Assembly (NCBI GenBank): GCA_003144275.1
Contig: NJBF01000085.1
Location: 1 to 7,419 of the forward strand
Length of the DNA stretch: 7,419 nt
Direction of reading: 5' to 3'
From: Candidatus Heimdallarchaeota archaeon B3_Heim
GTDB lineage: Archaea > Asgardarchaeota > Heimdallarchaeia > Hodarchaeales > Hodarchaeaceae
Under the pieces are notes generated by a model. That model was not told where the DNA came from, made no database searches, and saw nothing but the letters and a program-made list of their open reading frames with translations. The position numbers and the translations under genes are program-made. Positions 2,680-7,419 of this stretch are shown piece by piece; position 1 is the stretch's first letter; each line of letters starts with the position of its first letter.

Positions 2680-3501
2680 ATGGAGAACATTGGAACTGAA
2701 ACATTAATCTTTGCTTTCGGATTAACTCTGTTTGCAGGATTATCAACCGGAATAGGAAGTGCTATTGCTTTTTTTGCCAGAACGACCAATATAAAATTTA
2801 TTTCCATTTTTCTCGGCTTTTCGGCGGGTGTAATGATCTATGTTTCGATGGTTGAAATTTTTGTTAAAGCAAAAAGTGCACTGGTTATGGAGCTGGGAGT
2901 TGTTGGTGGGAACTGGGCAACCGTAGGTGCATTTTTTAGCGGAATTTTCATTATTGGAATAATTGACCGGTTTATTCCTTCCGCGGAGAACCCACATGAA
3001 ATAAAAAGAGTGGAAGATATGGCATCTCCGGATTCCGCAGGTAGAAACCACAAATTAATGAGAATGGGGTTATTTACCGCTCTTGCGATTGCCATTCATA
3101 ACTTTCCGGAAGGATTGGCAACTTTCACAGCTGCCCTTACCGACCCAGGTTTGGGTATTGCTATCGCTGTGGCAATTGCCATTCATAATATTCCTGAAGG
3201 AATAGCTGTTGCCGTTCCCATTTTTTACGCAACCGGAAGCAGGAAAAAAGCATTTTTACATTCATTTCTGTCTGGTTTGGCAGAACCGTTGGGTGCATTG
3301 ATAGGCTACCTCATCTTAATGCCATTCATGAATGAGATCGTATTTGGATTATTGTTTGGAGCAGTGGCAGGTATTATGGTATTTATTTCAATTGATGAAC
3401 TCTTACCCACTGCAGAAGCATATGGGGAGCATCATTTATCAATATACGGACTAATCGCGGGTATGGCTGTAATGGCCTTAAGTCTTTTGCTTTTTGTCTA
3501 A
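2680..3501 (+). CDS. zupT: ZIP-family divalent metal (zinc) transporter ZupT, 273 aa
   Basis: Multiple hydrophobic helices, the twin metal-binding motifs [10 protein letters not shown] and [10 protein letters not shown], and LAEPLGA and DELLP. The true start is ATG at 2680 ([26 protein letters not shown]). The track's extension to 2551 translates the intergenic repeat. Confidence 0.96.
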
Positions 3502-4189: not shown

Positions 4190-4219
4190 TTGGCTGGAAA
4201 TAAAAATATTATACCTTTG
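4190..4219 (+). promoter_or_regulatory. Bacteroidota primary-sigma promoter for tRNA-Glu
   Basis: TTG (4190-4192), 19-bp spacer, TACCTTTG (4212-4219, fits TAnnTTTG), 26 bp before the tRNA. Confidence 0.65.
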
Positions 4220-4245
4220 CAATCCGAAGTTTGGGAAGGTAAATT

Positions 4246-4317
4246 GGTCCGTTCGTCTAGGGGTTAGGACGCCAGGTTTTCATCCTGGTAACAGGGGTTC
4301 GATTCCCCTACGGACTA
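4246..4317 (+). tRNA. tRNA-Glu (anticodon TTC), CCA not encoded
   Basis: Full cloverleaf: acceptor GGTCCGT/ACGGACT, D arm GTC/GAC, anticodon arm CCAGG-TTTTCAT-CCTGG, T arm AGGGG-TTCGATT-CCCCT, discriminator A4317 followed by CAA. Confidence 0.97.
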
Positions 4318-4323
4318 CAAAAC

Positions 4324-4337
4324 ATAGCTTAAGCTAT
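4324..4337. repeat. Perfect 14-bp palindrome right after the tRNA (weak terminator or att-associated)
   Basis: ATAGCTTAAGCTAT, 6 bp after the discriminator base. Its function is not determinable from the sequence. Confidence 0.45.
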
Positions 4338-4495
4338 TGATATTCAGCTGATTATTTTTTAGTGTTGTCAGATTCGTTGGTAAATGATAGGAAAATAGTG
4401 TTTTTACTATACATTCAAATCATTTTGTAAAATTGTCCGGGTCGGACTTACGGAAATATTTCTTACCTGACCTGAAAACAGTGTTTGGGTATACA

Positions 4496-5119
4496 TTAAA
4501 GGTAATTATAGTTATTTTTTTTCCATTTATCTGGGCATTCTAAAGTATAATCATCACTAATCTTTATTTTATTTTCAAAGAGAGAATTTTTAAATGACTT
4601 CTCTCTTCCTTTTAAAAGGATTACTTTATTTGCTTTGCCTTTAATATCATAAGAAAAAGTATTTGGTGGGAAAAAAGCAATTATTTTATGTTGAGGTTTT
4701 ATCTCTTTTATTACTTCTATTGGCGGGGATAAATCTCCATCAGCACAAAAAAGAAATGAAATATCCCATTTATTTAAAATAACATCTCTAATCATATGAC
4801 AAGCAATTGAAACATCTGTTTTCTTTTCCTCCCAATATGTAATTTTTACAGATTCTTTTTTCTCACCTATTTTTACACGTTTCCATCTATGTCTTTTTCT
4901 AAAATCGCCTAATATGAGTTCAAATTTCGGATTAAGTAAATTTGCTTGAAAAAACAAATCTTGCCTTTCGGCTTTATCTTTATCATATTGAACAGCAGAA
5001 AAGTATTTTACTGTGTTTTGATCCCTAGAAAGTGTCCGGATAAAACAAGAATCACTGTCCGGAATGGTCAGGAATCGGTGTCCGGTTTGGGCAAGAATAT
5101 GCACAAATCTACTTTTCAT
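4496..5119 (-). pseudogene. NYN-domain (PIN-like, LabA/DUF88) nuclease, N-terminally disrupted; chimeric but still open ORF of 207 aa
   Basis: NYN-like segments VKYFSAV, QDLFFQAN, EEKKTDVSIA and ADGDLSP start at about 5012. The usual first-strand motif (hhDGxN) with the first catalytic Asp is absent. In its place is translated IS-end DNA (HILAQTGHRFLTIPDSDSCFIRT). Confidence 0.78.
5030..5103 (-). mobile_element. Solitary IS21-family-like terminal (TG end plus three 23-bp direct repeats)
   Basis: The minus strand from 5103 reads TGCAT followed by ATTCTTGCCCAAACCGGACACCG / ATTCCTGACCATTCCGGACAGTG / ATTCTTGTTTTATCCGGACACTT. ATTC and CCGGACA recur with an exact 23-bp period. TG termini with arrays of transposase-binding repeats are established for the IS21 family. 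No istA or istB is in the window. Confidence 0.72.
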
Positions 5120-5200
5120 TAATTTCAATCAATTTAATCAATCCGCACCAACCTATCTTTATTTTGTTTTTGAGAGATGGCCAAAACTGCCAAACAGAGC

Positions 5201-5316
5201 AGAAAACCTTTATATGCTTTGAAAAATTTTTCAATTTTTGCTTGCGATTTGGCTTTTGGGAATTGCAAGTATGCATGAAAAATACTGAACTAATTGACTG
5301 GAGCGATTTGTTGGGT
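5201..5316 (-). other. Degenerate attC-like site at the 3' end of the HEPN gene
   Basis: The left half is canonical: R'' ACCCAAC (5316-5310, fits RYYYAAC), 5-bp spacer AAATC, L''-like GCTCCAG. An imperfect plus-strand hairpin spans 5230-5289. The right half is poor: R' candidates are GTTTTCT (5207-5201) or GTTGGTG (5152-5146). Confidence 0.35.
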
Positions 5317-5979
5317 ATTGAATTTCTTCGCGAGTGCATCATATAAACAGTCAAAAAATGTATGCATCTCTTGTGTGCTGTTTTCTACAAAACCCTTGTT
5401 CAAAACGATTCTCTCGTGTTTGTCAATATCCAATACGGTAATGTCTTTGATGAAATTTTTAATTGTGTCTGTATCTTTACGATTCTTTAGAGAACCTTCA
5501 ACATGAACGATGCAGTTTCTTATAAGATTAAGATTTTGGGATAAGTTAATGTAATACTTGCATTTGGACGTGTCAATTCCTACTTGGTTCTCAAGGTATT
5601 CCACTCCTCGTGCGATCACACCTGGGGTGTTGTCTTTGAAATCTTTTGAAATAGAAAATATCCGACGAGCAGTTCGACAAAGTCCAATTATATTGGCCTC
5701 TACCATACTCATTAGACTAGCGAACAGCGCATACCGCTGAAGACGAGGAAAGTCAGTTTCGACCTGAAAGATGTCTTCTGCATAAAATTCGGCCAAGAGC
5801 GAAGCCTCGTTCTCATCATTCACGGAACTAAGTTTCTTGGCAGCATCTGATTCTCTCCGCTTTCGCTCAGTTTGCAGAGCATTTTCAATAAAGCGTGCCA
5901 ATTCCTCGAATCTTTCTCGGTCGCAAGATGCTTTCTCGCGTCTCGCGCATAGAAGTACTTTGGCTCCAATGGTCCTCAT
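5290..5979 (-). CDS. Putative HEPN-domain protein (candidate RNase), 229 aa
   Basis: Predominantly helical sequence with the RxxxxH motif IRNCIVH (5520-5503) followed by xxG. ATG at 5979 is preceded by the A-rich leader AATTAAAAAA. The family call rests on this motif and its context only. Confidence 0.72.
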   Translation of the reverse strand: MRTIGAKVLLCARREKASCDRERFEELARFIENALQTERKRRESDAAKKLSSVNDENEASLLAEFYAEDIFQVETDFPRLQRYALFASLMSMVEANIIGLCRTARRIFSISKDFKDNTPGVIARGVEYLENQVGIDTSKCKYYINLSQNLNLIRNCIVHVEGSLKNRKDTDTIKNFIKDITVLDIDKHERIVLNKGFVENSTQEMHTFFDCLYDALAKKFNTQQIAPVN

Positions 5980-6067
5980 TTTTTTAATTAATAATTTACA
6001 AACTATTAACAAGCTGAAGAAGTAGTAACAATTTTTACCGCACTTTCCTTTTGCTTAACTTCAATGT

Positions 6068-6970
6068 CTATTTTAACAATAATACTGGATCAAAAACTTT
6101 ATCTGTCTCTCCAAATACCATCTCAAATGCTTTATAGTCGTTATTAGAAAGAAAACAGTTATTACTTTCAATAAGCTTCCCATTATTTATATATGAATAT
6201 ATGCTTATATTTTTTGCGATCTCATTTAATTTTTTGTCCCAAACTCTATCTATTTTTGGGTCAATTGAATAATCACAGTATAACATTACATATGTGGCAA
6301 TATCGTGAAGCACTGCGACTCAGTATATATGTTCTAATACTTTGGCCATTTCTTCATTTTTTTTCTCTTTCCTTAAGTTCTGTATCAAAGCTCGGCATTT
6401 CTTTCTTTCTTCTCTTAAAGCCCCTAAAGGAATTAATTGAATACTTGCATAATCAAAGTCAGGTTCAAACTCAATCTCACCAGACCAACGTTTTGCTTTA
6501 CTCATTAATTCTTGAACATTGATTGACTTGTTTTGGACTTGTTCCAATATACTCAAAGCATAATTAAGGTCGCGAACTTGCTTTTTCTCAATAAGTATGG
6601 AGGCAAGTGCAATATTGGCTTCTTCATTATTTGGGTCAATCTTTAAAGCTTCATTTAATATGAAAATAGCCCTTTTTAATGGAGTTGTTTTATCTTGATT
6701 TTTTCTACGATACCATATGGAGAAAAGCTCCCATCCTTTGCCTGTAAGAGTAAACAACTTTGGACTTGAATACTTTTTAGCATTCTGCTCAAATATTAAA
6801 AGATCTTCTTGCATTTTCTTTTCCCATATAGGCCAGTCATCGGTCATTGAGTAGCTTGCATATATCCCGGTACCCATTAAGACACTCTCAGCATAATTAA
6901 TAAGGTCTGTTTCACTTAATGAATCAATCTTTTTCTTTAAGCCTAAAATATTGCCAATAATACTGTTCAT
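6068..6970 (-). pseudogene. TPR-like hypothetical protein of about 300 codons interrupted by one in-frame TGA at 6320-6322
   Basis: Track ORFs 6320..7000 and 6068..6313 share a frame: ...EHIY-TGA-VAVLHDIATYV... A TPR-like segment reads RAIFILNEALKIDPNNEEANIALASILIE. ATG at 6970 after TTTAAACAGA is preferred over TTG at 7000. Confidence 0.75.
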
Positions 6971-7063
6971 TCTGTTTAAATTATATATGACACAATTCAA
7001 TAATAATCATTCCTGTTTCAAGTTATAAATTAATTATCACCCGGATTGTTGTTTTCGCCTTGT

Positions 7064-7192
7064 GCATAACGGGAGTGTATGAAAAGTTGCCGACTTCGAA
7101 GCGATTCCTTATTAAGATACACTGACCTTGAGACGGGCTAAAACGCCTAAATTTACTGCTATCACGGCAATTTTTTATACACATTGTTGTAA
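7064..7192 (-). other. attC-like recombination site (129 bp, Bacteroidota-type)
   Basis: Minus strand: TTACAAC (R''-like, 7192-7186), arm GTGTATAAAAAATTGCCG (7182-7165), 72-bp centre, arm CGGCAACTTTTCATACAC (7092-7075), then GTTATGC (7070-7064, fits GTTRRRY except at one position). The arms pair 16/18. The site starts 8 bp after the upstream stop and lies between co-oriented genes. Confidence 0.75.
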
Positions 7193-7200
7193 GCTGGCTG

Positions 7201-7419
7201 TTATTTATCCTTATCAATTTTATTTAGTTTTATATCAATGTCCCAAAAGATTTTTTTGTCTCCTTTAAAATCAAATGTTTTATTATCCTTAACCAGAAAT
7301 CCAGATAATTTATCTTCATTAAAGGCTAAATAATCAGCTTGAAATAACAAATATTCATAAACCTTTAGCAAACTTATATGCTTTCGTTTTCCTTTCAAAA
7401 AATTAACGCATATATCAAA
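7201..7419 (-). CDS. C-terminal 72 aa of a hypothetical protein; 5' end outside the window
   Basis: The frame is open to the window edge (FDICVNFLKGKRKHISLLKVYEYLL...KIDKDK*), so the track's TTG at 7398 is not necessarily the start. The stop TAA directly precedes the attC-like site. Confidence 0.7.
   Translation of the reverse strand, partial: FDICVNFLKGKRKHISLLKVYEYLLFQADYLAFNEDKLSGFLVKDNKTFDFKGDKKIFWDIDIKLNKIDKDK

Follow-up and report, generated by a model that had tools for sequence, protein, structure and literature searches.

In integrons, attC sites have been defined by their R boxes, spacer, L stem, terminal structure and active bottom strand (Nivina et al. 2016; PMC5027507). The additional domain specific to IntI and the extrahelical bases of the folded site are generally seen as central to folded-site recombination. 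According to IntegronFinder surveys, Bacteroidetes are almost free of integrons (bioRxiv 10.1101/2022.02.28.482270), and the only elements that IntegronFinder 2.0 reports in this group are In0 elements and a single complete integron, in Salinibacter. The closest description in the literature is that of the rAID-1 arrays of gut Bacteroidales, in which a XerD-family tyrosine recombinase at the 5′ end precedes as many as 31 low-GC genes that all point the same way (Ross et al. 2019, bioRxiv 10.1101/471110). The intergenic repeats of these arrays were described as reminiscent of integrons, and their cargo consists of defence/immunity genes (Ross et al. 2019). Finally, the pdif modules of Acinetobacter plasmids are an Xer/dif system, the sites of which are double-stranded and 28 bp long (11-6-11).

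The site studied here lies near the right end of the window, i.e., the whole stretch of 7,419 nucleotides that was analysed, which is contig C5 of its bin. We interpret it as the likely counterpart of attC at the 3′ end of a mobile cassette, in integron-like arrays of Bacteroidota that possess a Xer-type recombinase (recombination itself was not measured). With integron attC sites, especially those of sedentary chromosomal integrons (e.g., the Vibrio cholerae repeats), it shares the AAC (R′) and GTT (R″) boxes, the spacer, the L stem and the terminal structure, as well as the position and fixed orientation 3′ of an ORF that looks promoterless, the complementary starts and ends of the cassettes and the better-folding bottom strand. 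As is the case for the uniform attC sites of sedentary chromosomal integrons, one site family serves many unrelated genes. In contrast to integron attC sites, fixed G–T wobbles replace the extrahelical bases, the L stem is long (a perfect 19 bp), the centre of this family appears conserved in sequence instead of variable, the recombinase is devoid of the IntI-specific insertion and co-oriented with the array, and the site family is common to many families of a phylum rather than to one species.

Regarding rAID-1, the common points are a recombinase-headed co-directional array, a Bacteroidota host and a defence/immunity cargo. However, Ross et al. 2019 give motifs only, without folded-site anatomy, strand asymmetry or crossover point, and the present carriers are mostly environmental (Marinilabiliales, Lentimicrobiaceae, Saprospiraceae, Cyclobacteriaceae and others), not gut Bacteroidales. 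Moreover, membership in rAID-1 was defined by Ross et al. through a recombinase at least 44% identical to BF9343_RS08045, and the likeness noted here rests on layout, without data on recombinase homology. Xer/dif modules also have in common with the present arrays that simple Xer-like recombinases shuffle short gene modules, but the sites described here are folded hairpins of ~130 nt with AAC/GTT boxes.

Anatomy of the site in the window

On the − strand, the order of the features is as follows: the stop codon TAA of an ORF (7203–7201), a distance of 8 bp (7200–7193), the box TTACAAC (7192–7186), a 3-nt spacer, a first arm (7182–7165), a 72-nt centre (7164–7093), a second arm (7092–7075), a 4-nt spacer and the box GTTATGC (7070–7064), beyond which come an AT-rich leader and the next co-oriented ORF (6320–6970/7000). 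The two arms of the hairpin (7075–7092 and 7165–7182) are paired at 16 of 18 positions by Watson–Crick pairs and at the other two by G–T wobbles, and the stem has no bulged base. Both of these mismatches are G–T on the + strand and C–A on the − strand.

Read on the + strand, which is the bottom strand relative to the genes (see below), the site begins with the R′ box GCATAAC (7064–7070; top strand GTTATGC). Its AAC triplet (7068–7070) is the predicted crossover triplet, an inference made without any measurement of recombination, and the DNA to the left of the box is inferred to be part of the next cassette. The support for this box comes from the retention of AAC in the aligned copies of the family and from the switch of contig partners at 7063–7071, both of which are detailed below. 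Then come the unpaired 5′-side spacer GGGA (7071–7074), which is one base below the family norm in alignment A2, and arm L′ (GTGTAT G AAAA G TTGCCG, 7075–7092), the two lone G of which are the wobble partners and which is backed by wobble orientation and by the covariation of the outer pairs. The 72-nt centre, i.e., the terminal structure (7093–7164), is conserved across the family, the nearest copies being 82% identical over 104 nt. It is followed by arm L″ (CGGCAATTTTTTATACAC, 7165–7182) and by the unpaired 3′-side spacer ATT (7183–7185), both established by sequence reading and alignment A2. Finally, the R″ box GTTGTAA (7186–7192) and the upstream ORF are parts of one cassette; the GTT of this box is conserved and, in other arrays, the bases after GTT pair with the start of the same cassette.

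Only the 3′ end (72 codons; 7201–7419, − strand) of the site-bearing cassette gene is available, the gene being truncated by the contig end. It has no family match, and its single relative, 45% identical, is found in L199. The unit that starts at the R′ box has as its first gene one for a TPR-repeat protein (6320–7000, − strand; likely ATG at 6970), also includes the subsequent ORFs and opens with a typical cassette start, GTTATGCACAAG being similar to many family flanks in alignment A2. When the window was searched for an R″ complementary to the start of this TPR unit, no match was found within 2 mismatches of 12, and sites of this class are absent from the other three junctions of the window, so that only one junction out of four has one. 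The window is therefore regarded as one site and not as an array, because the downstream TPR unit has no terminal site.

The fold energy of the window copy amounts to −11.7 kcal/mol on the + strand (z = 0.06 against shuffles) and to −10.0 kcal/mol on the − strand, to be compared with a family mean of −19.9 kcal/mol. Because its own fold is no better than that of shuffled sequence, the reality of the hairpin in the window rests on the conservation of the family. Besides its short spacer, the window copy has an A–A at the outermost stem pair. Its R boxes fit the consensus only in part, at 6 of 7 positions for GCATAAC (RYYYAAC) and at 5 of 7 for GTTGTAA (GTTRRRY), and its spacers are of 4 nt and 3 nt for a family norm of 4 nt and 2 nt, the two being always uneven. 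R′ and R″ are complementary at AAC/GTT and at one more base only, which is normal, since same-site complementarity past the triplet averages 3.1 of 9 bases in the family. Altogether, we see the window copy as somewhat divergent and possibly decaying, and read it as the only site still recognisable in an array that is decaying or was truncated.

The rest of the window contains several other features. A DDE transposase gene (1–1059, − strand) is truncated by the left contig end, and a tRNA-Glu (UUC; 4246–4318, + strand) borders the run of − strand genes on its low-coordinate side, tRNAs being common as island borders. The gene at 4496–5128 (− strand) encodes an NYN-domain protein that matches the PADLOC candidate defence family HEC-09 from residue 38 (E = 1.4e-29), and a 240-aa protein (5290–6012, − strand) bears an Rx4H motif along with a weak HEPN match (RTasHEPN, E = 6e-4). 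Within the N-terminal part of the NYN gene, a segment of ~55 nt (5046–5103) recurs in contigs of X1, X2 and X3 (three of the sequencing runs considered below) with both flanks unlike, and corresponds to a short repeat or an insertion scar. Between the 240-aa and NYN genes, there is also an imperfect inverted repeat (5181–5194 / 5248–5259; 12 bp, one arm having a 2-nt bulge), which is devoid of AAC/GTT boxes and falls outside the family described here.

A site family behind unrelated genes

The family was searched for with a pattern composed of the two arm cores (32 bases over two arms) separated by a gap of 60–90 nt. More than 119 stretches were recovered in species-representative genomes and more than 120 in metagenome contigs (both counts being lower bounds), and the same pattern read backwards, used as a control, gave zero matches in the genomes searched. 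Named carriers are almost all Bacteroidota (Marinilabiliaceae, Prolixibacteraceae, Lentimicrobiaceae, Paludibacteraceae, Saprospiraceae, Cyclobacteriaceae and Flavobacteriales), with a minority of a few Ignavibacteria and a few odd bins, and each genome has from 1 to 3 copies. The 16-bp arm cores were preset by the search pattern. The span is of 103 nt in 199 of 250 matches, and the orientation of the wobbles is identical in 246 of 251 copies.

Alignment A2, which is composed of 89 non-redundant copies and the window, led to the following plan for the strand equivalent to the + strand of the window: xxxTAAC - G(T/G)TG - 3 variable bp - GTATGAAAAGTTGCCG - about 71 nt - CGGCAATTTTTTATAC - 3 variable bp - (G/A)T - GTT(A/G)xxx. 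The three outer pairs of the stem are compensatory (e.g., CG 39, AU 26, UA 16, GC 3), the AAC/GTT pairs are retained in 74–82 of the 89 copies and the covariation score is above those of all 500 shuffles and of all slid controls. None of the 89 copies shows a gap or a bulge in the stem columns (21–39 / 113–131). The sequence of the centre is conserved too, the mean column identity over alignment A2 reaching 75%. Two small hairpins proposed within the 72-nt centre are 76–77% paired with almost no compensatory change, and a broad scan of its column pairs was uninformative. Under DNA parameters, the bottom strand (+ strand of the window) folds more stably than the top strand in 86 of 89 copies, the means being −19.9 and −17.2 kcal/mol, respectively.

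To situate the sites with respect to genes, ORFs of at least 60 codons were considered in the copies with enough flank (n = 162), the wobble strand being taken as antisense. An ORF ends upstream of the site in 133 of these 162 copies, compared to 27 when the site is flipped, and it is this orientation that identifies the + strand of the window as the bottom strand. The median distance from ORF end to site is about 20 nt. Clustering of the 167 distinct ORFs found upstream yielded 150 unrelated clusters; one site family thus serves highly diverse cargo.

Some of these points had been anticipated in an earlier note, made from the sequence alone. Its coordinates and its description of the site (stop codon, 8 bp, AAC, an 18/72/18 hairpin, GTTATGC, leader and next gene) held. 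So did its claim that the + strand is the bottom strand and folds better, in view of ORF orientation (133/162) and stability across copies (86/89), and its claim that the arms are long and show no obvious extrahelical base, given the absence of any stem bulge in 89 copies.

Cassette arrays, their recombinase and partner switching

The family trails cassette ORFs in a fixed orientation, and the arrays are headed by a co-oriented Xer-like tyrosine recombinase. In two complete or near-complete chromosomes, those of a Marinilabiliaceae MAG (G061) and of a Bacteroidales MAG (G062), the recombinase is followed by a long co-oriented run of small genes that contains the element. These small genes are each trailed by a site, with repetitive intergenic sequences between co-directional genes. 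The other intergenic gaps of G061 (about 105–130 bp) carry a second type of site (xxxAAC-ACG-CCGTATAC...GCATACGG-CCATCC-GTTxxxx), built on the same plan; sites of this type share AAC-ACG-C(C/G)GTATA and again have G–T wobbles at stem positions 7 and 12.

In the same genome, the start of each cassette is the complement of its own end. For the present family, such complementarity was quantified on 9 cassettes, each located between two family copies, by comparing the nine bases after GTT with the nine bases before the terminal AAC: 4 to 8 of 9 bases are complementary (mean 6.7), for a mean of 2.83 in a random-pairing control. Cassettes lying between such sites thus have complementary starts and ends, and the data support reading this as the signature of cassettes excised and inserted at G|TT, with the reservation that recombination was not measured.

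A full-length, co-oriented homologue of the recombinase was found 0.6–3.5 kb upstream of the element in 8 further loci, which brings the number of arrays to 10 with G061 and G062. This Xer-like tyrosine recombinase is made of SAM-like and catalytic domains, preceded by an unassigned N-terminal extension of 110–145 residues. It scores under the cut-off of the integron-integrase profile TIGR02249, and its match splits around the IntI-specific region. When aligned to the IntI fragment encoded on contig C77 of the bin (see below), two array heads show a gap at the IntI-specific segment, and, according to a manual residue count, they are ~40 residues shorter than this fragment between GKGxKDR and HxLRH. 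No protein above the TIGR02249 cut-off was found in any of the five carrier genomes searched. As for NF040815, it was tried as a marker of the array recombinase and rejected, a plain Xer of the bin (C27) being also above cut-off.

Some observations concern the mobility of other elements within or next to the arrays. In one array of G062, the same cassette (a 160-aa ORF with a family site) occurs twice, 8.5 kb apart (L259:17546-18162 and L260:6044-6658), and the array is also broken by several copies of an IS3-like two-ORF element. In L262:3100-5260 (= G064:C5), the GTT of a family site is immediately followed by an IS91-family element (Y2_Tnp + Zn_Tnp_IS91), with a 305-aa tyrosine-recombinase ORF ahead of it. 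Three distinct loci (L262, L022 and L256) have the flank GAACTAAATCCC after GTT, which suggests targeting of the crossover box by such an element.

Turning to the window site, two runs from public sediment and subsurface metagenomes (X1 and X2) contain window DNA at high identity, and their contigs were compared over positions 4200–7419. Away from the site, adjacent contigs overlap by 30 nt, as predicted by a k = 31 graph, but there is no such overlap at the site. Instead, the contig covering 4957–7071 continues into other DNA that opens with a site-like L box (GCGGTATG-GGTA-G-TGCC), and the contig covering 7063–7419 emerges from unrelated DNA. The stretch common to both contigs (7063–7071, TGCATAACG) is the R′ box with its AAC triplet, and the loose ends are identical in both runs. 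Therefore, each side of the R′ box has more than one partner in the population, as cassette shuffling predicts: the flanks of the window site are joined to other partners in metagenomes, and the switch takes place in the AAC box.

This junction evidence consists of assembled contigs, not of reads, and X1 and X2 are maybe related samples, one of which is possibly the source of the MAG. The own junction of the window is absent among the X1 and X2 contigs; it cannot be ruled out that the MAG contig is a minor variant or a mis-join at the site junction. Runs X3 and X5 have no cover over 6792–7419 and are hence uninformative. A short contig of X2 also matches 7187–7278 with 8 differences in 92 bases and diverges exactly at 7187, within the GTT of R″; it may represent a related cassette gene with a different site.

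Host of the contig, rival explanations and implications

According to both similarity and pattern searches, the window site is the sole one of its class in the whole bin, which also contains no homologue of the array recombinase. No other copy of the family was found in the class (83 genomes) or phylum (189 genomes, at least 90% completeness) of the bin, nor among its congeners, and C5 shares no DNA with 15–21 congeners or with other contigs of the bin. In our view, the absence of copies in congeners, class and phylum points to mis-binning and does not bear on the element itself. The bin itself is not Bacteroidota-like, with no SusD found in it. The ZIP transporter encoded on C5 (2551–3501) is 70–71% identical to those of two Bacteroidota MAGs vs. 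41–47% for the own genus of the bin, and the own copy of the bin is on C61. In all likelihood, C5 is Bacteroidota DNA wrongly assigned to a MAG from a different phylum, the alternative being a recent transfer; for the contig, this supports the host proposed in the earlier note. If mis-binning is retained, as we favour, the bin lacks both additional sites and a matching recombinase because C5 is probably foreign to it.

The bin does encode a canonical integron-integrase fragment (G000:C77:8755-9382, L012:1501-2128), which includes the IntI-specific insertion (TIGR02249, 185.8 + 48.7 bits). The N-terminus of this intI is replaced by an unrelated 500-residue reading frame, a frameshift occurs near HxLRH, and an IS21-type transposase gene comes next. 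This degraded gene most likely belongs to the real organism of the bin and is unrelated to the window site. A scan of the bin combining AAC...GTT and folding was also tried as an attC detector and rejected, the high rank of C5 being due to an internal repeat of the ZIP gene (3116–3220) and to another coding match.

The interpretation given in the earlier note, i.e., a Bacteroidota lineage in which a divergent tyrosine recombinase acts on a variant attC, is supported by evidence from outside the window. The note advised looking for more copies in the contig and the genome: there are none in the bin, and more than 240 in public genomes and metagenomes. It also advised looking for a recombinase and checking it for the IntI-specific insertion: the contig ends at 7419, 219 bp past the site, and Xer-like heads were found in 10 arrays elsewhere, two of which were aligned and lack the insertion. 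A single-copy element without recombinase would, according to the note, refute its reading; this is literally the situation within the bin, to which C5 is likely foreign. A match to a known MITE or ncRNA family, which would have refuted it as well, was not obtained (Rfam returned only the tRNA, and the aligned copies show no target-site duplication).

Four other explanations can be opposed to an attC counterpart served by a Xer-type recombinase. The site could be a classical integron attC, served by a canonical IntI such as the one of which C77 retains a remnant. In favour of this hypothesis are the AAC...GTT boxes, spacer, stem and terminal loop located after an ORF, and the presence in the bin of an IntI fragment with its specific insertion. 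Yet, an extrahelical base is found in no copy, the five carrier genomes have no protein reaching the TIGR02249 cut-off, two array heads are devoid of the IntI-specific segment, and C77 and C5 probably come from different organisms, the C77 gene being moreover frameshifted and deprived of its N-terminus; we thus deem it very unlikely. Hardly more credible is a function at the RNA level: the element would be a structured small RNA (antisense, read on the + strand) or act in transcription as the terminator/processing hairpin for the gene upstream, and its recombination features would be coincidental. Such a role would agree with the G–U-compatible asymmetry kept on one strand, with the covarying stem, with a 72-nt centre conserved well past the levels of classical attC sites and, for a terminator, with a location just past the stop codon. 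However, only the tRNA was found in the Rfam scan of the window (E ≤ 1), the sense strand has no U-run after the stem, and neither the complementarity of cassette starts and ends, nor the AAC/GTT boxes outside the stem, nor the link with a recombinase, nor the partner switches in the AAC box would be explained. A dual role, as both RNA and recombination site, remains possible and is not excluded.

A transposase-mobilised MITE, or what remains of such an element, would account for terminal inverted repeats of 18 bp, a length of ~110 bp and the many copies across genomes. This too is very improbable, considering that no target-site duplication is visible in the flanks of the aligned copies, that there are only 1–3 copies per genome, that the orientation relative to the upstream ORF is strict, and that conserved boxes lie outside the repeats, with flanks that covary with the neighbouring cassette. 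Finally, the window copy, which folds no better than shuffles, could on its own be a chance inverted repeat in AT-rich intergenic DNA, but the 32-base two-arm pattern is found in hundreds of contigs, with none for the backwards-read control in the genomes searched, which all but excludes chance.

Having weighed these alternatives, we retain the attC counterpart, for which the following mechanism can be proposed. The + strand (bottom strand) would fold as single-stranded DNA, the R box being separated by a short unpaired spacer from the 19-bp L stem, itself topped by a terminal structure of 72 nt. The recombinase would bind the R and L boxes, then cut and exchange at AA|C (G|TT on the top strand), and through this exchange cassettes would be excised as circles and reinserted. 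Strand choice would result from the two fixed G–T wobbles and the uneven spacers, not from extrahelical bases, the wobbles being predicted to pair on the bottom strand and to form C–A mismatches on the top strand. Both the folding of single-stranded DNA and the role of the wobbles are inferred. Likewise, anatomy, comparative patterns and contig junctions are the grounds on which a recombination mechanism is inferred, in the absence of any measurement. The conserved 72-nt centre is left unexplained by this model.

A bolder reading would see here an integron-like capture of genes that needs neither the additional domain of IntI nor extrahelical bases, in which strand choice is entrusted to two G–T wobbles and in which a near-universal module, found on at least 150 unrelated genes in many Bacteroidota families, makes it possible to study how an attC comes to be attached to a gene (cassette genesis). 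For the time being, we find the reasons to accept this reading and those to doubt it evenly balanced. At the practical level, the result obtained on the window flags a probably mis-binned contig, the 16-bp arm core is a probe with which such arrays can be found, and a site borne by about 150 unrelated genes is a natural data set on how cassettes arise. If the reading is true, a cassette system without both of the features regarded as central would be abundant in Bacteroidota, which would call for a wider definition of integrons, and strand selection would have received a second, independent solution. It would also imply that, in sediments, sludge and guts, a large reservoir of accessory and defence genes on mobile cassettes has so far gone unseen.
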